Of a stretch of DNA of 64,000 nt, positions 6,923-21,470 are shown piece after piece. A program made the translations under genes and the position numbers. Numbering within the stretch: position 1 is the stretch's first letter; each line of letters begins with the position of its first letter. This DNA comes from a virus: positions 1 to 64,000 of IMG/VR virus record IMGVR_UViG_3300028045_000001. One strand, written 5' to 3'. A model generated the notes under the pieces. The model was not told the DNA's origin and ran no database searches. It worked only from the letters and a program-made list of their open reading frames with translations.

Positions 6923-7486
6923 ATGGCGTACTACTATTGTGAAAAGTGTGGCAATTTAATCGAATCGAGAACGGCTATAGTGAATTGTCAAAATACAGAC
7001 TGTTTAAATTCACAATCCTCTGTAGACATGTATCAGATTGATGATTTATTTGTGGAATTAATTACAGGATTACATAGCCGAGGGATCCCAACTACCGGCT
7101 GTTGTTCTGGACACATCCATAATGTTACAGAACTCATTAACCCATATGTTGCTTTTAAAGTTGACAATATACATGAAGACTATGTCAGAGAATTATTTAT
7201 ACCAGAAATGAATAATCTCATCTCGGAAGAATATGTGTTTAGCGTCGTACCACACAATAAGGAAGGGGGCACGTTCATTGTAAAATTAGGAGTAGTTCGT
7301 AGAGATGAGTCATATATTAAAAACAGCTTAACTCTAACTCTTTTAACCCACATAAATAATTTTTATAAATTTCTTCATATGCAACAAGTGACGACTGATT
7401 TAGATCTATTAACTACTACACAGAGTAAACGCGATTATGGAACTTATAATGCGGCCGGAGGCATACATGATCCAATTACACGATGA
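6923..7486 (+). CDS. Zn-ribbon / CCSGH-motif family protein, copy 1
   Basis: N-terminal CEKCG...C..TDC zinc ribbon, then IDDLFVELITGLHSRGIPTTGCCSGH. The same architecture occurs at 10510 and 11067. Confidence 0.6.
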   Translation: MAYYYCEKCGNLIESRTAIVNCQNTDCLNSQSSVDMYQIDDLFVELITGLHSRGIPTTGCCSGHIHNVTELINPYVAFKVDNIHEDYVRELFIPEMNNLISEEYVFSVVPHNKEGGTFIVKLGVVRRDESYIKNSLTLTLLTHINNFYKFLHMQQVTTDLDLLTTTQSKRDYGTYNAAGGIHDPITR

Positions 7487-7742
7487 CGAATTGATATGTC
7501 CCAATTGTTTAATCAGCAACTACTTCTTTATTGGAGGTGGCTCTTGGTCCCCAGATAAATGTCCAGAGTGCCGTAGGACAGACTTGCCTGGAAGCCTTAG
7601 TTCGTACGCTACTTTATCTTTTGTAAGTAAGTTTAAAGCAGCGAAATTATTTTCTAAAATGTGGAGTTGCCACCATGGCGTGCCTGATAAATTTTCTAAT
7701 AGAAAGTTTATTATGGACAATTTATGTAAGAAGAAGAAATAA
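7467..7742 (+). CDS. small zinc-ribbon protein
   Basis: GGAGG lies 5 nt upstream of the ATG at 7467 (MIQLHDDELICPNC...CPEC). The start overlaps the end of the upstream gene. Confidence 0.5.
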   Translation: MIQLHDDELICPNCLISNYFFIGGGSWSPDKCPECRRTDLPGSLSSYATLSFVSKFKAAKLFSKMWSCHHGVPDKFSNRKFIMDNLCKKKK

Positions 7743-7823
7743 TAATTGTGTCCGGATATAACTGGAATAAAGATGATGGAAGTTAATTAGTAAGTACAAA
7801 AAAATAAAACTTAGGGGGAATAC

Positions 7824-8060
7824 ATGAAAACTGCAAACAAACCTTCATTGCAGGCTGTGGAAGCAATAAAGCATATGACCGATTTCCAAGTACAATTCAG
7901 ATGGGTGGTAGAAGATTTAGATAAACGAGCAGATCTTCTGCAAGCAAAGATGGAATTTACTAATCGAAGAACAGCATACCTTTCGCGAAAAATGAAATCT
8001 ATGGAGCGTACACTAAAAGCGCTCCGCCTAAAGCGCCTTTCCAAAAGTAATAGATGTTAA
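7824..8060 (+). CDS. hypothetical small protein (78 aa)
   Basis: Conserved upstream block AAAAAATAAAACTTAGGGGGA. Paralogous to the 50-aa ORF at 8101. Confidence 0.55.
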   Translation: MKTANKPSLQAVEAIKHMTDFQVQFRWVVEDLDKRADLLQAKMEFTNRRTAYLSRKMKSMERTLKALRLKRLSKSNRC

Positions 8061-8100
8061 GTAATTTATAAAATTTAAAAAATAAAACTTAGGAGGACAG

Positions 8101-8253
8101 ATGACAATTCATAATGAACTTCCAGCTAAGCTATTTACAGAAGCATTTATAATGCATACTGAAAACACCTTATCGCAATTTAAAGAGATATTGGATGCTC
8201 TAAGTGAACGAATGGATGTTGTGCAGGCAAGCATGGAAAAACCGATCAGATGA
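8101..8253 (+). CDS. hypothetical small protein (50 aa), truncated paralog of 7824..8060
   Basis: Not in the ORF track because it is under 60 aa. Reads [50 protein letters not shown]. Has the same upstream block AAAAAATAAAACTTAGGAGGA. Its stop overlaps the ATG at 8250 (ATGA). Confidence 0.45.
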
Positions 8254-10379
8254 TCTCGGACCTTTCACATAGAATGGAATTAAATGAGGAGTATATGAAA
8301 AATCAAGAAACAGTAGTGATACCAACTTACGATAGCCAAATTTTATTGCAAACTGACATGGATGCATATAAGTTAGGATGCAAATGGGCAGTGTTAATAA
8401 TCAATAGTAGCTGCGAACTAAAGTTTGAAAACGAGATAAACCGTTCCGAAGCAGACGATCTCATATCCAATACAAAAAATATTATGCTACAAATACAAAC
8501 GACAATAGATAGTTTAGGTATACAAAAAACGATTGTACAAGACAACTCACTAATGGATGAACCAGGTATCATACGCGTAGCTCTCATAGATAAAGAAGAA
8601 GGCATCGTGGACGGAGATATCCCATTATGTATAGCGATATGCTCAGATGAAGATTTAATTGAAGCAGCCGGAATGTGGCTCACTATTGTGTATCGGTTAA
8701 AGATAGGGTGTGAGATTGATTACACTAAATCCGAAAAAGAACGACTCCCACATTTTGAATACCTTGCCACAGTACGACCTGCCAATGCGACAGACAAGGA
8801 AGATTCGACAATGCCAAGTACTTATATTCTCATCGCCCATGCTGTTGCGACTGCCCCTCGGAGTGAAGAGGAACTACGTAAGCATAAAGGTTCGTTTATA
8901 ACAAAGTGGCAAGGACAAAAGATTACCTTACCGTTAGATAAATCCGGAACATATGACTTCGAAATCCATTGGGGCGACGGTGCACACGATAAAGTCATAG
9001 GGTACGATCATAGTAGAATCTCACACACATATGCCGATGGCGAGGAGGTGCATACCATAACCATTTATGGGACTGTAGAAGGATTCGGGTTTGATTATTC
9101 ACCGGGGGCAGGCGTAGCGGATATACTCGATGTACTTCAGTGGGGAGATGTCAAGTTACATAACAACGGAGCTCAGTTTGCACATTGTACAAAGTTAAAG
9201 GGATTCAGTGCTAAGGATGTTCCGGATTTATCTGATGTTACCAATATGTGCGGTATGTTCGGTAAGGCTATTTCTTTCAACCAAGATATATCTAAATGGG
9301 ATGTAAGCAGTGTTACTAATATGGAGCAGATGTTCTGTTACGCCATAGTCTTCAATCAAAACATCTCCAATTGGGATGTGAGTAATGTTACTACTATGGC
9401 TGGCATGTTTAGAGGTGCCGCATCATTCAACCAAGATATATCCAAATGGGATGTAAGCGGTGTTACTAATATGAGGGATATGTTCCATGAGGATACTTCT
9501 TTCAATCAAGCCTTATCTAACTGGGATGTTAGTAGTGTTACCAATATGAACCGCATGTTTTATATGGCTACCTGTTTCAATCAGGAGATCTCTAAGTGGG
9601 ATGTTGGAAATGTTACCGATATGGATGGCATGTTCATGTATGCTGTATCCTTCAACCAAGATATCTCCAACTGGGATGTGAGTAGTGTTACTGGTATGGG
9701 TGCGATGTTCCAGCGAGCTTCATCCTTCGATCAAGACATATCCAAATGGGATGTTAGTAATGTTACCGATATGATGGACATGTTCCGTTGCGCCATAGTC
9801 TTTAACCAAGACATATCCAAATGGGATGTTAGTAGCGTAACTGATATGCAGGATATGTTCCATGCAGCTACATCCTTTAACCAGGATATCTCTAAGTGGG
9901 ATGTAAGCAGCGTAACTGATATGGAGGATATGTTCCATTCAGCTCCATACTTCAATCAGGATGTATCTAACTGGGACGTTAGTAGTGTTACTAATATGAA
10001 CGGCATGTTCCATGAAGCTAAGGCTTTCGATCAAGATATCTCCAAATGGAATGTCGGCAGTGTAACTGATATGCACGGGATGTTCCGAGGGGCTCTTTCC
10101 TTCGATCAAGCTATCTCTAACTGGGATGTGAGTAATGTTACCAACATGAGCGGGATGTTCTATAATGCTGTTCGTTTCGACAAATGTATATATAGCTGGG
10201 ATGTAAGCAAGGTCACTAATATGAGGTGTATGTTCTATGGGGCTACCTGTTTCAACCAGGATATTTCTGAGTGGGACGTGAGTAACGTCACTAATGTACA
10301 AAGCATAGTCGGGCTTGCTCCAAGTTTTAAGCGAAATCTCCCCAATTTTAAAGATTGCGCCAATGTGATAGTTAGATAA
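8250..10379 (+). CDS. BspA-like / DUF285 repeat protein with a unique ~200-aa N-terminal domain
   Basis: About 15 tandem 25-residue repeats (FNQDISxWDVSxVTxMxxMF), preceded by the typical TKWxG..ITLPL..G.YDF.I.WGDG module. Alternative start at 8295 (GAGGAG RBS). Confidence 0.8.
9220..10320 (+). repeat. tandem ~75-bp coding repeats (DUF285 units)
   Basis: Periodic AAYCARGAYATHTC...TGGGATGT...GTTAC blocks are visible in the DNA. Boundaries are approximate. Confidence 0.8.
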
Positions 10380-10397
10380 GTTGTTTTGTACATAGGG

Positions 10398-10440
10398 CCG
10401 CTACACTGGGAATATCCCAGTGTAGCGGTTCAATTTTTTA
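10398..10440 (+). terminator. intrinsic terminator
   Basis: 13-bp perfect stem CCGCTACACTGGG/CCCAGTGTAGCGG with a 5-nt loop, then TTCAATTTTTT. Confidence 0.8.
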
Positions 10441-10444: not shown

Positions 10445-10454
10445 TATATATTAC
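10445..10454 (+). promoter_or_regulatory. early-promoter-like motif TATATATTAC
   Basis: Exact motif, 65 nt upstream of the ATG at 10510. Confidence 0.55.
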
Positions 10455-10509: not shown

Positions 10510-11067
10510 ATGCAATATGGATATTGTGAAAAATGTGGTCAACTAAGTACAGGCAGGTACCCTTCACGTAAGTGTATGAATGTTGATTGTAAAGGGGAGG
10601 ATGGATACGCCATAGATGAGTTATTCGGGGAATTAATTATCAGGTTACATAGCAATGGTATTGTTACTTCGAATTGTTGTTCCGGACATACTCAACTACG
10701 TGCAAGATCAATAGATACACTTTATATGCAATTTAAAGTATCAGCGGATCGTTTTGATAACACCTTTTTAAAGAGGTGTAATGAAATGGTCCCTAACTTT
10801 CCGGAATGTGACTACAACTTTGAATTATGGTGTAACAAGCAAACCGATGTCACGTACTTCAACCTTGTACTGAAATTAAAATCTAAGGAGGATTCGAAAT
10901 GGCCTACTGAGGCAACTGAACGGCAAATATACCACGTCAGTAATCTTTACAACGTATTATCTGATCCAGGGATGATGCAATTTTTATTTTCATTAACTGA
11001 CGAAGAAGAGAAGCTTAGGTACGCCAGATACAAACTATCAAAGGGCCAAATAGGGGGGCACAAATAA
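10510..11067 (+). CDS. Zn-ribbon / CCSGH-motif family protein, copy 2
   Basis: AGGAG lies 7 nt upstream. Reads MQYGYCEKCG...CMNVDC...IDELFGELIIRLHSNGIVTSNCCSGH. The tracked start at 10459 falls inside the promoter cassette. Confidence 0.65.
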   Translation: MQYGYCEKCGQLSTGRYPSRKCMNVDCKGEDGYAIDELFGELIIRLHSNGIVTSNCCSGHTQLRARSIDTLYMQFKVSADRFDNTFLKRCNEMVPNFPECDYNFELWCNKQTDVTYFNLVLKLKSKEDSKWPTEATERQIYHVSNLYNVLSDPGMMQFLFSLTDEEEKLRYARYKLSKGQIGGHK

Positions 11068-11600
11068 TGAGATGCTTTTATTGTAAGTCATGTGGGGTAG
11101 TACATCGTGCGGGGTACCATCCTACTAATTGTAAAAATATGTGTTGCGATGGGACGGTATATGAGATAGATGAGCTGTTTGCAGAATTGATTGTGAAGTT
11201 ACATGGATTGGGCATAGTCACAACCGAATGTTGTTCTGGCCATGCCCATGATGAAAAATCAATTGGGGCGATATATATTTCATTCGCAGTTAAAGGAGCG
11301 AAGACGGAATTCATCAAAAACCACGTTGTAGTCTCACTTAATAAGCAGGCACACGAAGCTTATAAATTTGAGGTCATAGAAAAGGAGGACGAGTATGAGA
11401 GCACCATTAGACTCTGCGTAAAACCAGAATTTAGTGACGTATACATCAATGATTCCCCAACCTGTACAATTTTGAATCACACTAAGTCTTTCATTGCAAT
11501 GTTACTGTATACTCCAAAAATCATAAAGATGCTGTATAGCTTAACTGGAGAGAAAGAAAAACTTAAATACGCTAGATATAGATGTAAGTTACATGCCTAA
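11067..11600 (+). CDS. Zn-ribbon / CCSGH-motif family protein, copy 3
   Basis: Reads MRCFYCKSCG...C..MCC...IDELFAELIVKLHGLGIVTTECCSGH. The C-terminal LTGEKEKLKYARY is shared with copy 2 (LTDEEEKLRYARY). Confidence 0.65.
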   Translation: MRCFYCKSCGVVHRAGYHPTNCKNMCCDGTVYEIDELFAELIVKLHGLGIVTTECCSGHAHDEKSIGAIYISFAVKGAKTEFIKNHVVVSLNKQAHEAYKFEVIEKEDEYESTIRLCVKPEFSDVYINDSPTCTILNHTKSFIAMLLYTPKIIKMLYSLTGEKEKLKYARYRCKLHA

Positions 11601-11750: not shown

Positions 11751-12365
11751 ATGAAGAAGGAGTTACTGTTGGCTACAATTGCAATTGTGTGTATTTCCGG
11801 ATGTGATGTTAACCTTGATATTGGGCCTGATGAAAGCACCAGTGGAGATGTCACAAATCCATATGGCGTGCATTCTCATCGTAACGCGGCTGTTCCCAAA
11901 GCCTGGTCTAAATTCTGTGCCCGCTATAATCAACCAATTGCTTCGAAAGACTATGGAAAAAGGTTTCAGGATCTAAGGGAGATCTTTCACCCGCTATTCG
12001 ATAATTTCGATCATGTTGAAGACATAGATCATTGGGGAGTCGAAGAGCAATGGGATATCATGCCTGACGACGATCTTCGTGGGGATTGTGAGGACTTTGC
12101 ACTTACCCTAAGGGCTCGACTTATTAGAAATGGATTTCCCATGCATGATGTCCGCATTGCTACTTGTCATATATTGAGGAAAGGCAAGCCTATGCATCAC
12201 GCGGTCGCTTTGGTTGAGGTCGATAGAGGTGATGTCTATGTGGTTGATCCAAGTGGAATATATAAATTTAAAGAGTATCGAGTAGTGTCCTGGAATAAGG
12301 TATTGGATGAGAGTGGCATATATTGGGTCATGATAGATAATATCCCAGGTACAATCAAACTTTAG
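11751..12365 (+). CDS. LapG/BTLCP-like transglutaminase-fold cysteine protease lipoprotein, paralog 1
   Basis: Lipobox ISGC with Asp at +2. Has the WG.EEQWDIMPDDDLRGDCEDFALTLR nucleophile motif, then HHAV and VVD (C-H-D). Confidence 0.7.
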   Translation: MKKELLLATIAIVCISGCDVNLDIGPDESTSGDVTNPYGVHSHRNAAVPKAWSKFCARYNQPIASKDYGKRFQDLREIFHPLFDNFDHVEDIDHWGVEEQWDIMPDDDLRGDCEDFALTLRARLIRNGFPMHDVRIATCHILRKGKPMHHAVALVEVDRGDVYVVDPSGIYKFKEYRVVSWNKVLDESGIYWVMIDNIPGTIKL

Positions 12366-12366
12366 G

Positions 12367-12415
12367 GGTAGAGGGAGAGCATGCTCTCCCTCTACCTGAA
12401 CTCATTATTTTTTTT
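12367..12415 (+). terminator. intrinsic terminator
   Basis: 30-nt perfect palindrome GGTAGAGGGAGAGCATGCTCTCCCTCTACC, followed by a T8 tract. Confidence 0.8.
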
Positions 12416-12418
12416 ATT

Positions 12419-12428
12419 TATATGTTAC
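12419..12428 (+). promoter_or_regulatory. early-promoter-like motif variant TATATGTTAC
   Basis: One mismatch. A T tract lies immediately upstream. Lies 64 nt before the ATG at 12483. Confidence 0.45.
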
Positions 12429-12482: not shown

Positions 12483-13520
12483 ATGGTAGCCAATATTGAA
12501 AAAATTTTAAGCACGATAGTTAGTGAATATAAATCATGGTGTCAAAAAAATAATGTTAAAGATTTTAATAATGAAGATTATAAATATTGTTTTATTGCGG
12601 ATTTTTTTAAACTTAATTCACAAGAACGACGCTTCACTGTTTTAATATCAAAGAAATGCTTAGAAGTATGTGAAGTCATACTCTATGGGGAATCTTTTGA
12701 ATATATGAAAAACGAAGAAAATTCTCTTTGGTTTTATACGGTAATAAATATGACATTCATGGAAAATTTACTTAACTGGGGTACTTCTATTCGTGTAGCA
12801 TGGTTTGAAATTGATGAGAAAGAATATTGTTTTACACATTTCACTCTTAATCTTGATATAGAATCATGGGGAGATTTTATTAAAGCGACTCGTGAATTTA
12901 CAAGAATGAGCTTAACGCCCACAGACTCAGTTGGATCTATAAATACAATTACATATGAAATGGGTTGTAGAATAGCAAAGGATATAATAAAATATTCTAA
13001 AACCAATGATTTATTATTTAAAGTAAAACAAATATTAGTGCGACTGCAGCACATAATGTTTAGCTTTAAAATAAATAAAAGATTTGTATTGACCAGCGAT
13101 AAGAACTTAAAAAATTATAATAATATAAAAATATATTTAATAGATAATACAGAACCACTTAATAGTTGTATATCGCATCTTGATCCAGATGATGTATTTA
13201 CAACGATACCACTTGACCGATTTTATTCGTTTGAAGAAGTAATTGATTCAACTACATTATGTATAAATGTATTGTCTGAAAAAGATTTAATCATTGCGTC
13301 TGGAATATATAGTTTTATTGGAAGCTGCTTATACAACGAATTTAGTATCGATTGTGTTGAAGATAGATGTATAGATGATTCTTATAAAATGCGCTTGCTG
13401 CAAAGCAAAGAAAAAAAGACACTATGTATAGAAAAGGGAGACTATGGCGAAAGGGGTCGTTTATATATAGATGATCTTGTCTATGTCACTATAGAAAATA
13501 TAGACGAAGTTAAATTTTAA
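12483..13520 (+). CDS. hypothetical protein (345 aa), very AT-rich gene
   Basis: The N-terminal 140 aa are paralogous to the next ORF (KKCLEVCEVILY, EENSLW, ESWGDFIKATREF). The C-terminal half resembles the N-terminal domain of the 8250 protein. Confidence 0.6.
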   Translation: MVANIEKILSTIVSEYKSWCQKNNVKDFNNEDYKYCFIADFFKLNSQERRFTVLISKKCLEVCEVILYGESFEYMKNEENSLWFYTVINMTFMENLLNWGTSIRVAWFEIDEKEYCFTHFTLNLDIESWGDFIKATREFTRMSLTPTDSVGSINTITYEMGCRIAKDIIKYSKTNDLLFKVKQILVRLQHIMFSFKINKRFVLTSDKNLKNYNNIKIYLIDNTEPLNSCISHLDPDDVFTTIPLDRFYSFEEVIDSTTLCINVLSEKDLIIASGIYSFIGSCLYNEFSIDCVEDRCIDDSYKMRLLQSKEKKTLCIEKGDYGERGRLYIDDLVYVTIENIDEVKF

Positions 13521-13536
13521 TCCAAGGAAAATGCGT

Positions 13537-14031
13537 ATGTCAGATAATATTAAAAAATACCTAGATGTACTAATTAAACAATATGAAGAATGGATTAAAG
13601 GTAGCGACTATTATGAGGCATGGGTTGAAGAAAATAAATATATTGAAAATTTTAATGATGTAGATTATAAATATTATTTCATTTCAGATGTTTTTGAATT
13701 TACTACATATGAAAATTACTACTCTGCATTAATGGCAAAAAAATGTCTGGAGGTATGTGAAACTATACTCTATAAGAATTTTGAATACATCAAAAATGAA
13801 GAAAATGCGCTATGGTATAACATAATAATTAATATGCCAATTTTAAATGATAAACTTAATTTAAATTCATCTATTCATGAAATACGATTTGAGATTGATG
13901 GGGGGACTAAATATGAAAGTTATTGGTTTCCATATAAATTAACTACTGAATCATGGGGAGAATTCATTAAAGCAATCCGCGAGTTTATACAAACGGAATT
14001 TTATAAACATAATGCACATATTGTAGTATAA
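13537..14031 (+). CDS. hypothetical protein, paralog of the N-terminal half of 12483..13520
   Basis: AAGGA lies 8 nt upstream of the ATG at 13537 (the alternative ATG at 13531 is only 2 nt from the RBS). Shares KKCLEVCETILY, EENALW and ESWGEFIKAIREF. Confidence 0.6.
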   Translation: MSDNIKKYLDVLIKQYEEWIKGSDYYEAWVEENKYIENFNDVDYKYYFISDVFEFTTYENYYSALMAKKCLEVCETILYKNFEYIKNEENALWYNIIINMPILNDKLNLNSSIHEIRFEIDGGTKYESYWFPYKLTTESWGEFIKAIREFIQTEFYKHNAHIVV

Positions 14032-14904: not shown

Positions 14905-15702
14905 ATGAAAAAGAATATATTAATTGCGATATCTACACTATTCATGATGTTTACTATGGTTGCTTGTGATGGGAGCAGTGGTGGGGGTGGTGCCTCCGGC
15001 GATGACCTATCGGATTCCGGCGAGCTCACCGGAGATCTTGGCACAGACATCATCATAGATCAATATGTTGGGAACACTACTCCGATTATATCCGTTGGTC
15101 AACCAACTGGACGAGTGCGGGCGTATGATGATTTCTTAAGAAGGGATGGGCAGGATGTTCCAGTGGCTCCGAATAAAAATTCGTTTGATCTGAAAAAAGC
15201 GCATAAGGCATTCAGAAAAAAATTCACCTACATGCACGACATAGATAAATACGGTGTAGATGAATATTGGACTATTATGCCTGATGATGATCTTGTTGGG
15301 GATTGCGAAGACTTTGCTCTAACCTTTCGTGAGAAATTAATTGAAGCTGGATTTACTCCACCAAACGTTAGGATAGCAACCTGCGTAATGCCAAATGGAT
15401 ATAGAGATAATAGCCATCAGACTTATCATGCTGTACTCATCGTAGAAGTTTTTTGGGGTGAGGTGTATGTAGTAGATTCCAAGAGATGTTTGAAGTTCGA
15501 TAGCTTTAAAGTAATAGAGTGGGATAAAGTACTTGATGAAACTGGCAACTATTGGGTCAAGATGCGCATACCTAAGGATAAAGGAAATGGCGATCCAGGT
15601 AATGATAATAAAATTGAAGAAGAGGAAACCGAGAAGGAGGACATGGAAGACGACGAACGAAAAGATGGTCCAATAGGCTATTATGATAGACACTATGCAT
15701 AA
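14905..15702 (+). CDS. BTLCP-like cysteine protease lipoprotein, paralog 3
   Basis: GGAGG RBS. Lipobox MVAC with Asp at +2. A Gly/Asp-rich linker is followed by VGDCEDFALTFR, YHAV and VVD, then an acidic C-terminal tail. The tracked start at 14815 lies in the promoter cassette. Confidence 0.7.
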   Translation: MKKNILIAISTLFMMFTMVACDGSSGGGGASGDDLSDSGELTGDLGTDIIIDQYVGNTTPIISVGQPTGRVRAYDDFLRRDGQDVPVAPNKNSFDLKKAHKAFRKKFTYMHDIDKYGVDEYWTIMPDDDLVGDCEDFALTFREKLIEAGFTPPNVRIATCVMPNGYRDNSHQTYHAVLIVEVFWGEVYVVDSKRCLKFDSFKVIEWDKVLDETGNYWVKMRIPKDKGNGDPGNDNKIEEEETEKEDMEDDERKDGPIGYYDRHYA

Positions 15703-15709: not shown

Positions 15710-15766
15710 CTTACATGTTGTTGACCACACTTGGTCAACAACATGTAAGAATCATTTATTTTTTTT
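15710..15766 (+). terminator. intrinsic terminator
   Basis: 18-bp perfect stem CTTACATGTTGTTGACCA/TGGTCAACAACATGTAAG with a 4-nt loop, then a T8 tract. Confidence 0.8.
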
Positions 15767-15789
15767 AATGTCTTTCAATGTTTATTGGT

Positions 15790-15799
15790 TATATATAAC
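15790..15799 (+). promoter_or_regulatory. promoter-like motif variant TATATATAAC in the conserved 45-nt block
   Basis: Nearly identical to the block at 14030-14075. Lies 63 nt before the ATG at 15853. Confidence 0.5.
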
Positions 15800-15852: not shown

Positions 15853-16470
15853 ATGAAAACAAATTTTATCAATACAATGATAATAATTACTGTAATGTTC
15901 GCTACAGCTGCATGTAAAGAAGATGCATCTATTAGTGATTATATGAATAGCGACGCCACCACAGCAGTTGAATCCATGGGTCGACCAACAAGAAGGGTTA
16001 GGGCTTATGATGACTTCTTAAAAAGAACTGGTAAGAAAGTTAATGCCATTCCAAAAAAGAACTCATTCGATCTTATACGAGTATACGACGAGCTCAGAGA
16101 TAATTTTACTTATATGCGCGACATGGAACAATACGGTGTGGAAGAATACTGGACTGTTATGTCGGACGATGATCCTGTTGGGGATTGTGAAGACTTTGCT
16201 CTAACTCTTCGTGCACGATTGATAGCCGATGGGTTCTCTCCAGTGAATGTCAGGATTGCAACTTGTTACGTACCAACCTCGTATACTAAATCCGATGATC
16301 CAGAAAAGCGACTGAATCATGCAGTTCTTATAGTTGAAATTAATAATGGCCAAGTGTATGTAGTTGATAATGGAGACCACTATAAGTTTCATGAATTTGA
16401 GGTAATTAACTGGGACCGCATGCTTGATGAGACTGGAAATTATTGGGTCAATATGAACGTGTCCAGCTAA
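15853..16470 (+). CDS. BTLCP-like cysteine protease lipoprotein, paralog 4
   Basis: GGAGGA lies 5 nt upstream. Lipobox TAAC (+2 Lys). Has VGDCEDFALTLR, NHAV and VVD. Confidence 0.7.
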   Translation: MKTNFINTMIIITVMFATAACKEDASISDYMNSDATTAVESMGRPTRRVRAYDDFLKRTGKKVNAIPKKNSFDLIRVYDELRDNFTYMRDMEQYGVEEYWTVMSDDDPVGDCEDFALTLRARLIADGFSPVNVRIATCYVPTSYTKSDDPEKRLNHAVLIVEINNGQVYVVDNGDHYKFHEFEVINWDRMLDETGNYWVNMNVSS

Positions 16471-16483: not shown

Positions 16484-16526
16484 TGTAGGGTGGGCAATAT
16501 GCCCACCCTGTAGTGTATTTTTTTAT
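16484..16526 (+). terminator. intrinsic terminator
   Basis: AGGGTGGGC/GCCCACCCT stem extended by G-U pairs, with a 5-nt loop, then a T7 tract. Confidence 0.7.
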
Positions 16527-16554: not shown

Positions 16555-17157
16555 ATGAAAGGGATCTTTATAAACGTGACCCTAATTGGCCTACTGCTAC
16601 TTGGACTCGCTTGCGAAGAAACAGAAGTTACCCATTCAAAAATAGGTAAGCATAATAGATGGAGGCATGCCGGGTACGATGACTTTCTTAAGACACGTGG
16701 GCAAAAAATTTTCGATAACCCAAAGAAGTTCCTTGTCGATTTTCGAAAGATATACGACGAGCTTAGAGATAATTTCACGTATATGGGTGACGAAGAACAG
16801 TATGGCAAAGAAGACTATTGGACCATTATGCCTGACGACAATCTGGTTGGGGATGATGAGGATTTTGTGCTAACCCTCAGAGAAAGATTAGTTAGTAGTG
16901 GTTTTAATAAAGCTAACGTAAGGATTGCCAGATGTTATAAACCGAGGGAGGATAATAAATATGATTCGGAGTACCTTATGTTCAATCATGTTGTGGCCCT
17001 TGTTGAAATTGAAATGGGAAGGTTGCTTGTAGCAGATACAGATGACTACTACAACTTCTATCGTTTTCCAGTAGTCAGTTGGTACGACATGCTTGATGAG
17101 ACTGGCGACTATTGGGTCAAGTTGGATATGCCAGGAAATTCGGACAAAATGGAATAA
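16555..17157 (+). CDS. BTLCP-like lipoprotein, paralog 5 (nucleophile Cys replaced by Asp)
   Basis: GGAGGA RBS. Lipobox GLAC (+2 Glu). The motif reads VGDDEDFVLTLR (GAT at 16855-16857). Shares the REDNKYDS insert and the ...DETGDYWVKLD.PGNSD tail with paralog 2. Confidence 0.7.
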   Translation: MKGIFINVTLIGLLLLGLACEETEVTHSKIGKHNRWRHAGYDDFLKTRGQKIFDNPKKFLVDFRKIYDELRDNFTYMGDEEQYGKEDYWTIMPDDNLVGDDEDFVLTLRERLVSSGFNKANVRIARCYKPREDNKYDSEYLMFNHVVALVEIEMGRLLVADTDDYYNFYRFPVVSWYDMLDETGDYWVKLDMPGNSDKME

Positions 17158-17159
17158 CT

Positions 17160-17187
17160 ACAACGCCTGGACATGTCCAGGCGTTGT
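17160..17187 (+). terminator. hairpin between paralogs 5 and 6
   Basis: 28-nt palindrome ACAACGCCTGGACATGTCCAGGCGTTGT. No clear T tract, so it may be only a partial terminator or a processing site. Confidence 0.5.
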
Positions 17188-17219
17188 GTAACTTATTTAA
17201 ATACATTGGAGGACATGTC

Positions 17220-17861
17220 ATGAAAAATAAAATTATCAGTATGATGTTAATGGGTGCAATTGTCCTTAATGTAGTTGCATGTGTAGAAGTGACAACTACC
17301 ACAACTACTACAGCTACTGGCGAACCTATTGTAATGGGCGACTACGATATCTCAGGTAATGAAACCCCACTCGAATACATTGATCGACCTTCAAGGAGAG
17401 TTCGATTTTATGATGATTTTTTGAGAAGGACTAATAAGAAAGTTCCCTTAAGTCCTAAAAAGAATGTTGGTGATCTTAAAAAAATATATAAGAAACTTAG
17501 GTCTACTTTTACCTATGTGTCTGACATAAATCAATATGGTGTGGATGATCATTGGGTAGTTATGCCGGACAATAATCGCACAGGGGACTGTGAGGATTTT
17601 GCTTTGACTCTTCGTGAAAAGTTAATTGCAGATGGGTTTGAAAAATCCAACGTGAGATTCGCCACGTGTTACACTCCTAAAAAATATGAGGAAGATGCAA
17701 AGAACAATTACCATGCGGTCCTTATTGTTGAGTTATTTTGGGGAAAAGTGTATGTTGTGGATTATAAGTATTGTGTAGAGTTTCGTAAATTCCCTGTTGA
17801 GAAATGGGATCATGTATTAGATGAGACGGGGAAGTATTGGATCCGGATGGAGATTCGTTAA
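17220..17861 (+). CDS. BTLCP-like cysteine protease lipoprotein, paralog 6
   Basis: GGAGGA RBS. Lipobox VVAC (+2 Val). A Thr-rich linker is followed by TGDCEDFALTLR, YHAV and VVD. Confidence 0.7.
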   Translation: MKNKIISMMLMGAIVLNVVACVEVTTTTTTTATGEPIVMGDYDISGNETPLEYIDRPSRRVRFYDDFLRRTNKKVPLSPKKNVGDLKKIYKKLRSTFTYVSDINQYGVDDHWVVMPDNNRTGDCEDFALTLREKLIADGFEKSNVRFATCYTPKKYEEDAKNNYHAVLIVELFWGKVYVVDYKYCVEFRKFPVEKWDHVLDETGKYWIRMEIR

Positions 17862-17906: not shown

Positions 17907-18962
17907 ATGGCAGAAGAAGCGTATGAAGAAGAGCTGCATTTATTAGCCCTTATGAAAAAACTATTCACGATGGGCGTTGTTTGTTGCAGTGTTGTTTGGG
18001 CAGGATTTAATGTTTGCAGCACTGTCTGGGATTGGGGCAAGGCAAAGTATGAGACACACAAGCAACAATCCCATACTGAGAAACGGTATCTACGACGAAT
18101 GAAATCACTCGTTGCCAGCTACAATGCTCTCGAATCACAAGTTGCCAAAAACGATAGACGATTAACTGAAATTGAAGGAACGATGACCAGTAAATCCGTT
18201 GGACGAACTTCGAACTCATCTAAGGTCAAACTGTGGCCAAGTAATACTATCAGATACCACATTGATGAGAAAATTGAGGATTGGGATTTAACCCAAATGA
18301 TCGATGAGGCATTTGAAAAAATAAGTGAGAATACTTGTTTAAAATTTCATAAGCTTCCGATACTTTGGAAGGATAGGAGTAGCTTTCTGCTAATCACATT
18401 GACGGAGAGTGACGAGGACTATCCTAATGCGACATTGGGCTATTCGCAAAGAAATCAAGTTGAATTGAGTATGTATTCTGAATTTGATACTGTATACCAT
18501 GAGTTTCTACATGCACTTGGATTGCCCCATGAACACCAAAGACCTGATGCTGAAATAGTCGTTAATTTTGATAACCTTGAAGGTGATAGTACTTGGTACA
18601 GAAAATATCCAAAAGATATGTACCCATACCCTTTGGATAAATTCATCTTTGATGCTGACTCCATTATGGCATATTGCTCATATAGCGAGACAACACAACG
18701 AGGGAAGAAAACTATTAATTACGGGAGAGCGCAGGGGTCACTCAGTCCCACTCCAATTGACTACATGAAGATCAATTGTATGTACTGTGGCTCTAATCCT
18801 CCACCGAAAGAGACCCAGTGGTACATGGCACTACTGAACAGGTATTCCCATAAAGGCTCACCAAAGAAGTTGAAGGTGGTCATAGAAGGGGAAGATGGCG
18901 AACGTGATGTACTTGTCACTTTAGATGAAATGGCATCTTTTGGTAATAAAAAAGAATACTGA
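17907..18962 (+). CDS. astacin-like (M12A) zinc metalloprotease with N-terminal membrane anchor
   Basis: Full astacin signature HEFLHALGLPHEHQRPD (HExxHxxGxxHE) and the Met-turn SIMAY. Has an N-terminal hydrophobic segment LFTMGVVCCSVVWAGF. Confidence 0.75.
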   Translation: MAEEAYEEELHLLALMKKLFTMGVVCCSVVWAGFNVCSTVWDWGKAKYETHKQQSHTEKRYLRRMKSLVASYNALESQVAKNDRRLTEIEGTMTSKSVGRTSNSSKVKLWPSNTIRYHIDEKIEDWDLTQMIDEAFEKISENTCLKFHKLPILWKDRSSFLLITLTESDEDYPNATLGYSQRNQVELSMYSEFDTVYHEFLHALGLPHEHQRPDAEIVVNFDNLEGDSTWYRKYPKDMYPYPLDKFIFDADSIMAYCSYSETTQRGKKTINYGRAQGSLSPTPIDYMKINCMYCGSNPPPKETQWYMALLNRYSHKGSPKKLKVVIEGEDGERDVLVTLDEMASFGNKKEY

Positions 18963-19085
18963 TAGTTACATGACCGGGAAAACAGATCCTCTTGGCGGCT
19001 GGTATAGTGAAGGTATAATGGGATTTGTGAGAATAGAAGACATGATAGATTTTAGTAGGTAAATTAAAACGAAAGGAGACGTAAA

Positions 19086-20084
19086 ATGAAAAAAGGTAAA
19101 ACAACAATCAAGGGCAGTAATGCAAAAATGGCTACATTGGCAATTTGTGGGATAGTTAACATCATTTTTATTTGGACTTTTTGTAGTGCAACGGTGACTG
19201 TTGCAGAGGATGTCGCTGTAACGCACGAGGTACAAGAAGAACAAGTTCCATTTTCAATGGAAGAGCATCGTGTACGATGTCGAAAAGCTACCACTTTAGG
19301 TAGAGAGCACCTTCTGTCAAAGCCCCACACTGTGCAAGGATGGCCCGATAAGGTCATTCGATACTATATCGATAAAGACAGATTGACGGATCCATATGTT
19401 GTTGAAGAAGTAATAAATGTATTCGACGCCATAGCAGAAACCACATGTTTAGACTTCATCCGACTTGATGGACCAGAATCATACAATGTGCAGGTTAAGG
19501 TATTATTGGTAACATCCACTACAAATGGGAGGTACCCCACTTCAACATTAGGATACAATGAGATCGCGAATATAATTAGATTGCGCAATGATTCTCAAAT
19601 ATGGACTATCTATCATATGGTTTTACATGCGTTGGGTTTGACTCATGAGAACCAGCGACCCGACGCAGAGCTTCTTGTTGATATGGATAACATACAAGAA
19701 GAGTTTAAATGTAATTTTGAGAAGCTCCCTGCAAGTTGCTTTCTGTACCCAGTAGATAAGTTCATTTTTGAGGTAAGTTCCATTATGTCGTATAGGCCAT
19801 ACTCTGCCTGTAAAGATTGTAGCAAAAGAACTATCGACTACGGGCGCGAGAAGGAGGGACAACGTGAACCGACATCTATTGATTATATGAAATTGGAGTA
19901 CATTTACTGTGGACTTAATCCGCCACCTAAAGAAACCCAATGGTATTTGTCTTTTCTACATAGGTACCATAATCACTCAAAGCCTGAGGATTTGACGGTT
20001 ACAATAAAAAGTAACGGTATAACTTCATACGTTAATTTTGGTGGCATGGCGTCGCCACTCGGCGATCATGTGAAACCGGAGTAA
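19086..20084 (+). CDS. astacin-like paralog with the catalytic Glu replaced (HMVLH)
   Basis: Reads YHMVLHALGLTHENQRPD. The three Zn-ligand His residues and the Met-turn SIMSY are retained, but the HExxH Glu is Met (ATG at 19617-19619). Has a signal-peptide-like N-terminus. Confidence 0.7.
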   Translation: MKKGKTTIKGSNAKMATLAICGIVNIIFIWTFCSATVTVAEDVAVTHEVQEEQVPFSMEEHRVRCRKATTLGREHLLSKPHTVQGWPDKVIRYYIDKDRLTDPYVVEEVINVFDAIAETTCLDFIRLDGPESYNVQVKVLLVTSTTNGRYPTSTLGYNEIANIIRLRNDSQIWTIYHMVLHALGLTHENQRPDAELLVDMDNIQEEFKCNFEKLPASCFLYPVDKFIFEVSSIMSYRPYSACKDCSKRTIDYGREKEGQREPTSIDYMKLEYIYCGLNPPPKETQWYLSFLHRYHNHSKPEDLTVTIKSNGITSYVNFGGMASPLGDHVKPE

Positions 20085-20112
20085 TAAAACAAGGGTTTAT
20101 TTAATCTTATCG

Positions 20113-20147
20113 ACGAGACTGTGGATCGAATACCCACAGTCTCGTTT
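20113..20147 (+). terminator. intrinsic terminator
   Basis: 12-bp stem ACGAGACTGTGG/CCACAGTCTCGT with a 9-nt loop, then TTTGT. Confidence 0.6.
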
Positions 20148-20180
20148 GTATCAGTATAAAAACTATAAGGGAGAACTGTC

Positions 20181-21470
20181 ATGAAAACAGACACTACCGC
20201 GTTCGTAACAAAGTGGGAAGGGAAACGAGTCACGTTACCATTACACAAAAATGGAACATTTGATTTTGTAGTAGACTGGGGCGACGGTGTAGCAGATCAT
20301 ATAACTGAACATGATCAAAAAGAAATTATACACGATTATGAGGATGGCCAGTTAACGCATGAAGTAGCTATATCTGGCACCATAGAAGGGTTTGGATTTA
20401 TTGTCGATGACCCACTTAGTTACACTGCCATAAATTCGCTCCCCTTTGGATCTTTTCCATTAAATAACACCGACGGCTTTGCGCAGCAGTCCAGGACCAT
20501 TGCATTAGTAAAGAAATTCACGAACTGGTGTATGGGGTTTGTCACATCCAAGCAAGCCATAGTGTCAGGACCAAAGGAAGGAAGCCAATTTATGGACTTT
20601 ATTAAGTCAGCCCAAGCTATGGCCCCAAAACCGAGCGACTGCATATTACTCGATGTCTTACAGTGGGGGGCCGTTAAGTTACACAATGGAGGGTGTCAAT
20701 TTACAGATTGTACAAAGTTAAAAGGCTTCAGTGCTAAGGATGTTCCAGATTTATCTAATGTTACTAATATGATGGGCATGTTCCTCAGAGCTACATCGTT
20801 CAATCAAGACTTATCTAAATGGGATGTGGGTAGTGTTACTGATATGAAAGATATGTTCTGTGGCGCTACTTCCTTTAACCAAAATATCTCTAAATGGGAT
20901 GTGAGTAGTGTTACTGATATGAGCGGTGCGTTCCTCAGGGCTGCATCTTTCAACCAAGACATATCTAATTGGGACGTTAGCAGTGTCACTAATATGAAAG
21001 ATATGTTCTTGGGTGCCGAAGTCTTCGATCAAGACATATCTAACTGGGATGTTGGCAAGGTTACTGATATGGCGAATATGTTTAATGGCGCTACATTATT
21101 CAATCAACCCATCTCTAACTGGAATGTTAACAGCGTCACCGATACAGCTGGGATGTTCTATGAAGCTTCATCCTTTAACCAAGACATATCCAATTGGGAC
21201 GTGGGTAGGGTAACTGACATGAGGTTTATGTTCCACAATGCCACTGCCTTCAATCAAGATATTTCTAAGTGGAATGTTGGCAGTGTTAGGAATATGGATT
21301 GTATGTTCATGTCGGCTGTATCCTTCAACCAAGATATCTCTAACTGGGATGTGAGTAGCGTAACTGCTATGGGAGGTATGTTCTATGAAGCCAGCTCATT
21401 CGATCAGAATATATCCGATTGGGATGTAATCAACACGACCAAAGGAAGTCCCATTAAACAAACAAATTAA
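20181..21470 (+). CDS. BspA-like / DUF285 repeat protein, copy 2
   Basis: The N-terminal MKTDTTAFVTKWEGKRVTLPL...VDWGDG is nearly identical to the ORF at 62864. About 9 repeats of 25 residues. No signal peptide. Confidence 0.8.
   Translation: MKTDTTAFVTKWEGKRVTLPLHKNGTFDFVVDWGDGVADHITEHDQKEIIHDYEDGQLTHEVAISGTIEGFGFIVDDPLSYTAINSLPFGSFPLNNTDGFAQQSRTIALVKKFTNWCMGFVTSKQAIVSGPKEGSQFMDFIKSAQAMAPKPSDCILLDVLQWGAVKLHNGGCQFTDCTKLKGFSAKDVPDLSNVTNMMGMFLRATSFNQDLSKWDVGSVTDMKDMFCGATSFNQNISKWDVSSVTDMSGAFLRAASFNQDISNWDVSSVTNMKDMFLGAEVFDQDISNWDVGKVTDMANMFNGATLFNQPISNWNVNSVTDTAGMFYEASSFNQDISNWDVGRVTDMRFMFHNATAFNQDISKWNVGSVRNMDCMFMSAVSFNQDISNWDVSSVTAMGGMFYEASSFDQNISDWDVINTTKGSPIKQTN
20750..21430 (+). repeat. 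tandem ~75-bp coding repeats (DUF285 units)
   Basis: Same periodic unit as at 9220-10320. Boundaries are approximate. Confidence 0.75.

Follow-up and report, generated by a model that had tools for sequence, protein, structure and literature searches.

Positions 6923-21470 of the window, as the whole 64,000-nucleotide stretch analysed here is called, form a 14.5-kb region of an uncultured phiKZ-like giant phage that consists almost throughout of gene duplicates, old and diverged. Its functional core (11.7-20.1 kb) would comprise six lipoprotein BTLCPs, which are cysteine proteases of the LapG/HvyA family with a papain-like Cys-His-Asp triad, and two astacin-type zinc metalloproteases that are predicted to be anchored in the membrane through a hydrophobic segment at the N-terminus. 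The probable target of these proteases is the host cell envelope. The best reading, which is given roughly an even chance, is of a periplasm-facing protease battery, probably transcribed early, that would remodel host surface structures in the manner of LapG and HvyA. The same even chance covers the explanation as a whole, in which the region belongs to an extended run of same-strand genes in a deep-branching phiKZ-like jumbo phage, and in which whole promoter-gene-terminator cassettes would have been duplicated in tandem long ago and then diverged, giving rise to its six lineage-specific families.

Composition of the region

The phage encodes RNAP beta, a DNA polymerase and a PHIKZ087-like protein, and on these genes it is read as a phiKZ-like jumbo phage; no diverged relatives of it were found in IMG/VR, the JGI metagenomes, the GTDB genomes or a set of 5.8 billion proteins. 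The five multi-copy families named in a preliminary description of this DNA (Zn-ribbon/CCSGH x3, mini-gene x2, BspA-like/DUF285 x2 here, BTLCP x6 and astacin x2) were all confirmed by family matches or pairwise identity. A sixth emerged from the AT-rich insert of that description, which has a GC content of 0.274 in 12483-14031 against 0.391 for the window (z = -4.65) and is itself a two-member paralog family. With this pair included, paralogous sequence occupies 88.7% of the region versus roughly 21% of the rest of the window, and a dense block of lineage-specific paralogs is what the sequence supports. All open reading frames of the block are intact despite saturated dS.

The observations of the preliminary description are thus largely real, and its interpretation is supported in part. 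It had held that most products carry export signals and that the whole stretch is aimed at the cell surface, neither of which is supported: export signals occur in eight of the 18 genes, covering 40.6% of the bases, and nothing ties the greater part of the region to the envelope. Within the region, the Zn-ribbon/CCSGH, mini-gene, AT-rich and DUF285/PARCEL products have neither a signal peptide nor a TM segment, and for this reason these co-located paralog families should be left out of the proposed protease function.

The predicted exported proteases

The core genes are as follows.

11751..12365, + strand: BTLCP 1; PF06035 E 1.1e-19; lipobox ISGC; Cys/His/Asp triad intact; most divergent copy
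14125..14739, + strand: BTLCP 2; lipoprotein signal MVAC; Ala in place of the catalytic Cys (GDAEDF), predicted dead
14905..15702, + strand: BTLCP 3; lipobox MVAC; intact triad and a long acidic tail at the C-terminus
15853..16470, + strand: BTLCP 4; lipobox TAAC; triad intact
16555..17157, + strand: BTLCP 5 (motif given under ORF 16543); lipobox GLAC; catalytic Cys replaced by Asp (GDDEDF), predicted dead
17220..17861, + strand: BTLCP 6; lipobox VVAC; triad intact
17907..18962, + strand: astacin 1 (351 aa); PF01400 E 2.8e-18; N-terminal signal anchor and coiled-coil linker
19086..20084, + strand: astacin 2; PF01400; N-terminal hydrophobic signal; HMVLH instead of HExxH

PF06035 matches all six BTLCPs (E 1e-10 to 1e-19), and a trace match to PF01841 (transglutaminase-like) was seen among them. 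In the alignment the catalytic Cys is found in four of the six (motif GDCEDF), and the His and Asp are invariant throughout; BTLCPs 2 and 5 retain His, Asp and the acidic residues beside the Cys position. These two dead copies are sisters (NJ bootstrap 98%) within a monophyletic group of six (bootstrap 100%), and this monophyly supports an expansion of the array within the lineage.

The N-terminus of every BTLCP, and of no other window protein, combines an n-region and an h-region with an invariant Cys, the lipobox being confined to these six among 71 window proteins. Of the six lipoboxes described previously, only three pass a strict PROSITE-like rule, the others deviating at position -4 or -3. 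Although identity between the copies is only 38-61%, the Met, Lys and lipobox Cys do not vary. Linkers beyond the lipobox are highly variable in the alignment, and in the AF2 model residues 13-53, past the lipobox Cys, have a pLDDT below 50 and are modelled as disordered, which fits the expectation for a tether.

LapG is the sole PDB relative of the BTLCPs, both by sequence (4U65_E) and by fold, with the AF2 model of BTLCP 1 matching LapG 4U65/4FGO at probability 1.0 and E 9e-5. That the phage proteins are LapG equivalogs is ruled out by a score of 21.8 bits against a cut-off of 320 for the equivalog model. As the top 21 bacterial matches are all LapD-unlinked, the BTLCPs are nearer to the LapD-unlinked alphaproteobacterial BTLCPs than to true LapGs, although no alphaproteobacterial BTLCP is more than about 34% identical to them. 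Most of the LapD-unlinked clade is uncharacterised, and the only characterised relatives, LapG and HvyA, are both periplasmic and act on surface adhesins and capsule. The six-copy array is unique among 91 BTLCP loci, just one other locus having even two copies.

Both astacins match PF01400 with E about 1e-18, their PDB matches being meprin, astacin and myroilysin, and each has one N-terminal hydrophobic segment, in keeping with the one anchor and one signal peptide reported before. The HEFLHALGLPHE motif (HExxHxxGxxHE) and the SIMAY Met-turn are intact in astacin 1. In astacin 2 the HMVLH sequence means that the catalytic Glu is lost whilst the Zn ligands are kept, and the protein is predicted to be dead; hence two families do contain active-site-dead members, as had been proposed. 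No astacin occurs in 50,697 phage records, and IMG/VR contigs hold astacin-like genes of ~220 aa bearing lipoboxes as well as a lipoprotein BTLCP. Judged by their signals and motifs, the BTLCPs and astacins are plausibly exported proteases.

Promoter-like motifs and terminator hairpins

Private terminator and promoter cassettes had also been claimed, and they were recovered: hairpins lie directly 3' of the stop codon in ten genes (MFE -17 to -32 kcal/mol), and a phiKZ-type promoter-like motif, TATATATTAC, stands upstream of seven.

10395..10431, + strand: 17-bp terminator hairpin followed by a T-run
10445..10454, + strand: phiKZ-type promoter-like motif TATATATTAC (motif table in PMC7058600)
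11603..11669, + strand: terminator hairpin (11603-11624), T-run and promoter-like TATATATGAC (11660)
12366..12428, + strand: terminator hairpin (12366-12397), T-run and promoter-like TATATGTTAC (12419)
14031..14094, + strand: conserved promoter/leader element with GGTTATATATAACTT, 94% identical to 15767-15830
14744..14849, + strand: perfect 19-bp hairpin (14744-14781) and promoter-like motif (14840)
15710..15799, + strand: 18-bp hairpin (15710-15749) and promoter-like motif (15790)
16484..16512, + strand: 13-bp terminator hairpin followed by a T-run
17159..17188, + strand: 13-bp hairpin
20108..20150, + strand: terminator-like hairpin
21479..21560, + strand: terminator hairpin (21479-21524), T-run and promoter-like TATATATTAC (21551), closing the block

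In the general form TATAT[AG]WWAC the motif occurs at 10445, 11660 (variant), 12419, 14054, 14840, 15790 and 21551, and it equals the phiKZ/201phi2-1 promoter consensus TATATTAC (motif table in PMC7058600). Across the window it was observed 20 times against 3.6 expected, mostly in intergenic positions and co-oriented. The promoter/leader element has remained 94% conserved although neighbouring synonymous sites are saturated. BTLCPs 2, 3 and 4 have the variant promoter-like motif TATATATAAC, without a T-run, and this variant may belong to another temporal class.

Proposed function

It is envisaged that the phage's own RNA polymerase transcribes the genes from the phiKZ-type promoters, probably early, and that the products are exported by the host Sec system, with Lgt and LspA lipidating the BTLCPs. 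Flexible linkers of differing lengths would then tether the proteins at the periplasmic face of the membranes, where the active members would cleave or modify host envelope proteins, with substrates that may differ between paralogs. LapG releases giant adhesins, cutting them in Vibrio dispersal (PMC13603594), and HvyA, a periplasmic BTLCP, needs its catalytic triad to block capsulation through capsule export, thereby permitting infection by phage phiCr30 (PMC4241560). By analogy with these, the infected cell would be expected to lose surface structures, so that receptors might be removed (giving superinfection exclusion, with no progeny lost on debris) and/or the cell detached from surfaces. 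The Cys-less BTLCPs and the Glu-less astacin, which appear to keep the rest of the fold, are probably non-catalytic binders or partners.

Age of the copies

The paralogs are 30-61% identical at the amino acid level, with dN of 0.32-0.72 and dS of at least 1.5 or undefined/saturated; where dS is defined, dN is below it, and purifying selection on the copies is supported at this level. No long near-identical DNA repeats were found in the region, and the copies are, by these sequence measures, ancient. Contigs of the same phage (99.9-100% identical) come from three other samples (ENA ERZ27250540, SRR8436474 and SRR8436476), with a further one from JGI 3300027996. The longest, of 11.3 kb, has the same gene order and one SNP in the island part, which is intergenic, and over the 11.3 kb covered by the contigs from the three other samples there is no change in copy number. 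The region had been called accordion-like, a description against which the saturated dS and the lack of near-identical repeats both speak, as do the divergence and the stable copy number.

Alternative explanations

The block might instead be an arms-race (accordion) locus, in which diversifying selection, directed against variable surface proteins of the host or against defences based in the envelope, makes copy number and sequence change fast. The local paralog density (89% against about 21% elsewhere in the window), the variable post-lipobox linkers and the uniqueness of the array among BTLCP loci would agree with this, and other paralog families do vary in copy number between phiKZ-like phages (PMC5694885). 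It is nevertheless thought unlikely, given the age of the copies, the dN values and the near-identity of the contigs from other samples. A slightly less probable proposal concerns the chemistry, namely that the BTLCPs, as transglutaminases or deamidases, cross-link or modify proteins of the envelope or of the phage, for instance in envelope hardening or secretion-machine modification, rather than acting as shedding proteases. The family falls within the transglutaminase-like superfamily, as the PF01841 match reflects, and transamidation and deamidation are discussed for HvyA and could take the place of proteolysis in BTLCP chemistry (PMC4241560). However, LapG, the sole member with a known reaction, is a protease, and the co-location with two astacin endopeptidases suggests proteolysis.

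Improbable to a marginally greater degree is a role as lysis or egress helpers, with the proteases cutting envelope tethers (Lpp, OmpA or Pal-type links, or proteins associated with peptidoglycan) late in infection to supplement the endolysin and spanins. Predicted periplasm-facing lipoproteins do recall o-spanins, papain-like and zinc-peptidase folds are common among cell-wall enzymes, and the distinct promoter subclass of BTLCPs 2, 3 and 4 could be later. Yet no holin, endolysin or spanin-like gene adjoins the proteases, the flanking promoter-like motifs agree with the early consensus of phiKZ, peptidoglycan cleavage is not known for any BTLCP, and six diverged paralogs with dead copies are not expected of a simple lysis role. 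The lowest probability is assigned to largely neutral genome inflation, in which gene duplicates persist because jumbo phages tolerate them, and the block would be a collection of decaying copies that now do little. Paralogs are indeed frequent throughout the window, a catalytic residue is missing from three of the eight proteases and most families are without known function. Against such decay stand the intact reading frames and the conserved motifs, lipobox Cys, promoters and terminators; moreover, the dead copies keep their His, Asp and flanking acidic residues and were themselves duplicated.

Comparison with known systems

One of the closest counterparts of the proposed envelope-directed protease battery is LapG, a BTLCP cysteine protease that serves the Lap adhesin system in the periplasm of Pseudomonas, Legionella and Vibrio. 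Both belong to PF06035 and have the His, the Asp and a GDCED(F/Y) motif in which acidic residues flank the Cys, and LapG is exported to the periplasm and changes surface display, as the phage BTLCPs are predicted to be exported. Unlike LapG, which is soluble, they are predicted lipoproteins, phage-encoded and in six copies, two of which lack the nucleophile, and the phage locus has no LapD partner. HvyA of Caulobacter crescentus is likewise a periplasmic BTLCP with an export signal, is triad-dependent and links capsule to phage adsorption (PMC4241560). The phage copies are closest to the alphaproteobacterial standalone type, the likeness to HvyA itself being one of description; HvyA differs in having a Sec signal without lipidation and in being a single host gene under cell-cycle control.

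In river single-virus genomes and viromes BTLCP is reported to be the most frequent viral AMG (PMC11283719). Single lipoprotein astacin-like or BTLCP genes of the 'moron'/AMG kind occur in other phages (loci L095, L096, L098, L099 and L005, of which L096 is a real phage), the annotation being 'transglutaminase' in Caulobacter phage CcrPW and 'peptidase' in Vibrio phages K477-K481. Identity to these is no more than 30-57% over short stretches, and none has an array, an active/dead pairing or the two-family combination, or lies in a phiKZ-like phage. Lineage-specific expansions are also known from phiKZ-like phages, where head proteins such as SPN3US families A-C and the phiKZ inner-body proteins form paralog families whose 2-20 members have diverged and among which there is a protease paralog without activity (PMC5694885). 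Multi-copy DUF285 is also common among jumbo phages, with 6 to 40 or more sites in phages such as OBP, Aeromonas D3/LAh10 and Vibrio pir03. These are virion or giant repeat proteins, not exported enzymes with a promoter and terminator per copy. The earlier suggestion that such amplification is not established for jumbo phages accordingly fails for paralog families, multi-copy DUF285 and viral BTLCPs and holds for an array of exported proteases, no description of which was found in searchable papers. The new element is the monophyletic array of six lipoprotein BTLCPs, which pairs active with dead members and adjoins two astacins.

Poxvirus gene accordions (K3L-type) are likewise tandem arrays of a single gene within a large dsDNA virus genome, but they are recent, near-identical and unstable in copy number, in contrast to the diverged phage copies with saturated synonymous sites and a gene order identical in other samples over the part covered. 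T5 Llp and Cor of phi80/N15 are phage lipoproteins made during infection that alter receptor availability from the periplasmic side; they are small receptor-binding blockers without an enzyme domain, and no sequence relation is known. A BFVD match to a 'receptor-blocking protein' is at chance level (E 0.15).

Families without export signals

The remaining genes of the region are the following.

6923..7486, + strand: Zn-ribbon/CCSGH member 1 (187 aa), paralog of 10510-11067 and 11067-11600; no export signal
7437..7742, + strand: small CxxC...CxxC ORF (101 aa), a singleton with no family match; true start probably further downstream
7824..8060, + strand: mini-gene 1 (78 aa), weak paralog of mini-gene 2
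8101..8253, + strand: mini-gene 2 (50 aa), weak paralog of mini-gene 1
8250..10379, + strand: DUF285/PARCEL-repeat protein (709 aa); PF03382 E 2.7e-147; TIGR02167 244 bits; no signal peptide
10510..11067, + strand: Zn-ribbon/CCSGH member 2, by paralogy; ORF start at 10459 possible
11067..11600, + strand: Zn-ribbon/CCSGH member 3, by paralogy; AF2 model pLDDT 70.8
12483..13520, + strand: AT-rich gene 1 (345 aa); phrog_18399
13531..14031, + strand: AT-rich gene 2 (166 aa); paralogous to AT-rich gene 1 over the N-terminal half of the latter
20181..21470, + strand: DUF285/PARCEL-repeat protein (429 aa); PF03382 E 5e-101; TIGR02167; no signal peptide

The three Zn-ribbon/CCSGH proteins are 30-34% identical to one another (E 1e-21 to 1e-24) and belong to a wider family of 784 distant homologs of ~140 aa each, for which there is no Pfam family and no fold match in the PDB. 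The mini-genes match weakly (37% over 30 aa, pairwise E 6e-6) and have the leader AAAAAATAAAACTTAGG and RBS in common. The 709-aa DUF285 protein has a 208-aa N-terminal extension and 75-nt repeat units, and a third DUF285/PARCEL copy lies in the window outside the region, at 62864-63955. The AT-rich genes are 40% identical (E 4e-34), and the first has a C-terminal half similar to the N-terminal domain found in the larger DUF285 protein (709 aa). Homologs of AT-rich gene 2 in cultured phages are from Vibrio phages only (47 of 47 records), and the matches to Vibrio phages may offer a hint of the host.

Composition and age of the island

By sequence, the island (6923-21470) codes for six BTLCPs, of which four are catalytically complete and two Cys-less, together with one complete and one Glu-less astacin. 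All 18 ORFs lie on the + strand, and every one of the five multi-copy families named in the preliminary description was recovered by all-against-all BLASTP and profile searches. The families, together with the AT-rich insert, are as follows.

7824-8060 and 8101-8253, + strand, two mini-genes with weak similarity and an identical leader
8250-10379 (709 aa) and 20181-21470, + strand, DUF285/PARCEL proteins, with a third copy beyond the island at 62864-63955
Starts at 11751, 14125, 14905, 15853, 16555 (also given as 16543) and 17220, + strand, six BTLCPs (PF06035), 38-61% identity
12483-13520 and 13531-14031, + strand, a paralog pair forming the AT-rich insert (12483-14031; GC 0.274, z = -4.65)
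17907-18962 and 19086-20084, + strand, two astacins (PF01400), 43% identity
Three further genes, + strand, Zn-ribbon/CCSGH proteins, 30-34% identity

Six families account for 88.7% of the island versus roughly 21% paralogous sequence in the remaining window. The paralog density is real, and paralogy is also a genome-wide habit of this phage since diverged families are found beyond the island. These include one family at 2336-3355, 3378-4550, 35714-36727 and 38822-39868, and the pairs 25362-26045/26903-27736, 36852-37898/39986-41023, 53138-53485/53508-53897 and 26118-26456/26491-26880, with identities within families of 22-43%. In this the phage is similar to SPN3US and phiKZ, where paralogy has been described for the head proteins (PMC5694885). 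The phiKZ-like phages contain paralog families of 2-20 members, even including an inactive protease paralog, but these are head proteins (PMC5694885). Within the island, the N-terminal domain of the 709-aa DUF285 protein resembles the C-terminal half of the AT-rich gene 12483-13520, a sequence likeness that suggests domain shuffling between the two families. The resemblance (window 8250-8870 and 12950-13310) joins residues 39-143 of the former to residues 157-276 of the latter with 26% identity and an E value of 3e-4 in a window-only database.

The paralogs are only 47-62% identical at the nucleotide level, with dN values of 0.32-0.81 and a dS that is at least 1.5 or undefined in every pair; with dS saturated, the dN/dS ratio among the paralogs is uninformative. 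One ENA contig of this phage, 11.3 kb long and spanning window 15162-26470, keeps the gene order and differs at eight sites, of which just one, at 19019 and intergenic, is located in the island. No long high-identity repeats were found, and no change in copy number was seen for the same phage in other samples over the covered part, window 15162-26470. The earlier term accordion-like consequently has to be abandoned, as the copies are diverged and saturated in dS, with neither near-identical tandem copies nor copy-number polymorphism where there is coverage. The island is the opposite of a poxvirus-type accordion. As read from these comparisons, it is an old, stable expansion, apparently under purifying selection. 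The other seven differences of the ENA contig fall within 103 nt (25367-25469), at the 5' end of a gene (25362-26045) whose paralog lies at 26903-27736, and three codons there are amino-acid changing, marking a local spot of hypervariability beyond the island.

The BTLCP proteins

All six BTLCPs score well on PF06035 (40.3-71.2 bits versus a Pfam gathering cut-off of 27). The alignment shows a complete Cys-His-Asp triad in four of them, whilst the nucleophilic Cys is replaced by Ala in the protein at 14125 and by Asp in that at 16543; no copy has lost the His or the Asp. The set may thus be described as four candidate enzymes and two putative pseudoenzymes. Dead active sites had already been noted in the preliminary description, and they are indeed present in these two proteins and in the astacin at 19086, which has HMVLH where HExxH is expected.

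LapG is the sole solved relative of the BTLCPs, both by sequence (4U65_E) and by fold. An AF2 model with a core pLDDT of 85-95 gave LapG for each of the top six Foldseek matches (probability 1.0, E 9e-5 to 2e-3, TM 0.41-0.51). LapG proper is a Ca-dependent protease that cleaves the N-terminal retention module of an adhesin at a di-alanine site. An assignment of the phage proteins to LapG proper was rejected, with scores of 21.8 and 16.7 bits versus the NF045674 equivalog cut-off of 320, and neither a LapD gene (LapD_MoxY_N-GGDEF-EAL) nor a LapA-type adhesin/T1SS gene was found within the window. LapD is a neighbour at 40 of 80 bacterial BTLCP loci, and all of the 21 best bacterial matches to the phage proteins are LapD-unlinked, those with a named taxon being mostly alphaproteobacterial. 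HvyA belongs to this same LapD-unlinked alphaproteobacterial group. This periplasmic BTLCP keeps Caulobacter from forming a capsule, an effect that depends on its triad and that makes infection by phiCr30 possible (PMC4241560).

The six phage proteins are monophyletic with 100% bootstrap, indicating one acquisition followed by expansion within the lineage. Those lacking the Cys are sisters (98%). A segmental duplication of a dead-plus-active pair (14125+14905 giving 16555+17220) was considered but, since the pairing of the active genes reaches only 45%, it is kept as a suggestion only. Among 91 loci with a BTLCP, just one other has even two tandem copies. Single BTLCP-like genes are found in Caulobacter phage CcrPW and some Vibrio phages, and in single-virus genomes from rivers BTLCP is the most frequent AMG and is horizontally exchanged (PMC11283719). 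No paper on a phage-encoded LapG was found in the literature searched.

The astacins

The two astacins score 66.7 and 68.0 bits on PF01400 against a gathering cut-off of 22.5, and their PDB matches are meprin, astacin and myroilysin. They were tested for the family hallmarks, the HExxHxxGxxHExxRxD zinc motif and the SxMxY Met-turn. Both are intact in astacin 1 (HEFLHALGLPHEHQRPD and SIMAY), whilst astacin 2 (HMVLHALGLTHENQRPD and SIMSY) has lost the catalytic Glu and retained the ligands. Identity with Legionella LegP (NF045530) was rejected at 39.9 and 50.7 bits versus an equivalog cut-off of 300.

No astacin homologs were detected among 50,697 phage records, nor any besides the two themselves in a set of 5.8 billion proteins, and phage astacins were the subject of no paper in the literature searched. 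Nine distant astacin-like genes of ~220 aa are present in IMG/VR; four of them start with a clear lipobox, and one of these (L096) lies beside portal and head genes in a bona fide phage contig. Small HExxHxxGxxH astacin-like genes (about 215-240 aa) with clear lipoboxes occur on several uncultured viral contigs (L095, L096/L097, L098 and L099), and a further viral contig, L005, carries a lipoprotein BTLCP. The lipobox-bearing protease genes of L095-L099 and L005 are an unstudied class of phage-encoded lipoprotein proteases.

Export signals

Each of the six BTLCPs begins with a predicted signal in which an n-region rich in K and a hydrophobic core lead to a Cys that is the same in every copy. 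The strict lipobox rule is satisfied by three of them, the other three departing from it at position -3 or -4; a lipobox is absent from all 65 other window proteins listed. Beyond the Cys, the sequence differs between copies in both length and composition, and its disorder in the model fits a lipoprotein tether. At position +2, BTLCP 1-3 have Asp and BTLCP 4-6 have Lys, Glu and Val, differences that, by the E. coli rule, could send the proteins to different membranes. Each astacin has one N-terminal hydrophobic segment. It is very probable that these N-terminal signals of the BTLCPs and astacins direct export.

No export signal is present in the products of the CCSGH, mini-gene, AT-rich or DUF285 genes. 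The statement that most products of the island carry such signals is therefore overstated: it applies to the BTLCPs and astacins, which represent only 8 of the 18 genes and 40.6% of the bases. Likewise, what survives of a wholly surface-directed island is a predicted exported protease core, with over half of the block unconnected to the cell surface.

The phage, its possible host and its promoter-like motifs

The source of the window is a phiKZ-like (chimallivirus-type) jumbo phage, with the following characteristic genes.

29564-32437, PHIKZ087-like virion protein
48716-50917, phiKZ-type DNA polymerase
58855-60078, split multisubunit RNAP beta subunit (phrog_2962)

The virion protein matched 280 cultured phiKZ-like phages at only ~25% identity, and the longest contig given by database entries for these phage proteins is 239,960 bp. 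Pieces of the same phage, 99.9-100% identical, are present in ENA ERZ27250540, SRR8436474 and SRR8436476 and in IMG 3300027996. When the island was compared by megablast with 50,697 phage records, no nucleotide match emerged, and IMG/VR scans based on the helicase, on gene 23728 and on the CCSGH alignment turned up no relative of the phage. The BTLCP alignment retrieved only distant single-copy homologs from IMG/VR, JGI metagenomes and GTDB genomes. In the 5.8-billion-protein set the matches were limited to the phage itself, a single BTLCP from a bacterium and a short relative of CCSGH. Among cultured phages, homologs of the BTLCP and AT-rich genes come from Vibrio phages only, and the closest bacterial BTLCPs are all from Pseudomonadota, which together hint at a marine Gram-negative host.

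The private terminator/promoter cassettes proposed for the island hold up. Directly after 10 genes there is a perfect or near-perfect GC-rich hairpin with an MFE of -17 to -32 kcal/mol, generally accompanied by a T-run. The motif TATAT[AG]WWAC is found in seven intergenic regions behind hairpins, at 10445, 11660 (a variant), 12419, 14054, 14840, 15790 and 21551. Most BTLCP genes are equipped with a promoter-like motif and a terminator of their own. Across the window there are 20 occurrences of the motif versus 3.6 expected, and its + strand copies are mostly intergenic and upstream of + strand genes. It equals TATATTAC, the promoter consensus of phiKZ and 201phi2-1 (PMC7058600). A phiKZ-type early unit was taken as an AT/T-rich stretch and TATATTAC promoter upstream with an intrinsic terminator downstream. 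In the work of Ceyssens and colleagues from 2014, this class in phiKZ is reportedly early and served by the virion RNAP. The temporal class and RNAP dependence of the island motifs would be carried over, by analogy, from phiKZ only. Sigma-70-like sites are fewer than in shuffled sequence (52 versus 66), so host-type promoters do not explain the cassettes.

The promoters of BTLCP 2, 3 and 4 are of a sub-variant, GTCTTTCAAT-N8-GGTTATATATAACTT, also written with (GACTGAAAGAAG) after it. This promoter/leader element, in which TCTTTCA/TGAAAGA arms surround a palindromic core, is 94% identical between 14031-14094 and 15767-15830 and has a third site at 14820-14851. It is without the T-run of the general TATATATTAC promoters and may represent a separate regulatory class or an operator. 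That the leader is so well preserved despite saturated synonymous sites in the adjacent genes argues that the unit of duplication is the whole promoter-RBS-gene-terminator cassette, and on sequence grounds the regulatory part appears to be under strong constraint. Elsewhere, a (TA)n run of ~30 nt at 56060-56093 leads straight into a promoter-like TATATGTTAC.

Possible roles of the protease array

The BTLCP and astacin genes would be transcribed by the phage RNAP, probably early, and the proteases would then pass through Sec, acquire a lipid and remain tethered at the periplasmic face. There, by analogy with LapG and HvyA, they may cleave or modify envelope proteins, so that the infected cell loses surface structures such as adhesins, capsule and possibly receptors. 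The dead copies might bind substrates or partners. The purpose could conceivably be superinfection exclusion, the shielding of progeny from debris, or detachment. It is reasonably likely that the proteases act on host-envelope targets, and the overall explanation in terms of exported proteases has an even chance of being right, whilst any specific purpose among superinfection exclusion, progeny protection and detachment is tentative. The most elaborate version is doubtful. It pictures an early-expressed "surface-stripping" programme of a nucleus-forming-type jumbo phage, in which diversified membrane-tethered LapG/HvyA-like cysteine proteases and astacins, as enzyme/pseudoenzyme pairs, would remove adhesins, capsule or other receptors from the periplasmic side, the Cys-less and Glu-less copies being substrate traps or regulators. 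If true, this would be a form of enzymatic superinfection exclusion or forced detachment as yet undescribed for any phage.

In rival and less probable readings, the exported enzymes would instead be lysis helpers, their chemistry would be that of a transglutaminase, or the expansion itself would reflect neutral accumulation of duplicates or a true arms-race locus. The label of an arms-race island should not be cited for the block ahead of comparative data. PADLOC gave zero matches for a defence or anti-defence role. The array falls under known kinds, namely envelope-altering phage morons and the paralog expansion of giant phages, and does not call for a new category. It is unusual and provides a concrete, testable hypothesis, though the phage is uncultured. 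Should the proteases act as proposed, they would show large phages altering the host envelope from inside by enzymatic means, with the very protease family that bacteria employ to control adhesin release and capsulation. Superinfection exclusion, the spread of phages in biofilms and on particles, and the actual role of the often reported viral "BTLCP AMG" would all be touched by this, and the active/dead pairs would offer a compact natural system for pseudoenzyme evolution.

Other genes in and around the island

The DUF285 proteins score 482.6 and 333.2 bits on PF03382 and 243.9 and 165.4 bits on TIGR02167, and their tandem repeats (about 25-26 residues in the family) give a 75-nt periodicity in the DNA. 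Bacterial DUF285/BspA-like members reach the surface through a signal peptide or lipobox. Neither phage protein has a hydrophobic N-terminal segment (maximum H15 0.99 and 0.55) and both have zero TM-like windows. The family is common and multi-copy in jumbo phages, including OBP, Aeromonas D3/LAh10, Vibrio pir03 and Serratia and Kosakonia phages.

The CCSGH family has 784 distant homologs of ~140 aa. It matches nothing in Pfam, PADLOC or NCBIfam and has weak PHROG matches only, to entries with no assigned function; its AF2 model (pLDDT 70.8) found no PDB fold match at an E value below 0.1. An interpretation of CCSGH as an NlpC/P60-like "DCSG" motif was discarded, as neither the model nor any profile backs it.

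Directly upstream of the island, gene 6491-6832 encodes a 113-aa protein with two TM-like segments and is followed by a strong hairpin at 6833-6862. Its sole family match, to a T3SS gatekeeper model (24.8 versus 520 bits), is probably meaningless. Just downstream of the island, 22630-23076 (+ strand) is a 447-nt ORF-free and comparatively GC-rich spacer. No Rfam family matched anywhere in the window. The spacer folds with an MFE of -152.6 kcal/mol versus -115.0 +/- 6.2 kcal/mol for shuffled sequence (z = -6.1) and ends in a perfect hairpin of ~20 bp, and it is a candidate structured non-coding RNA.
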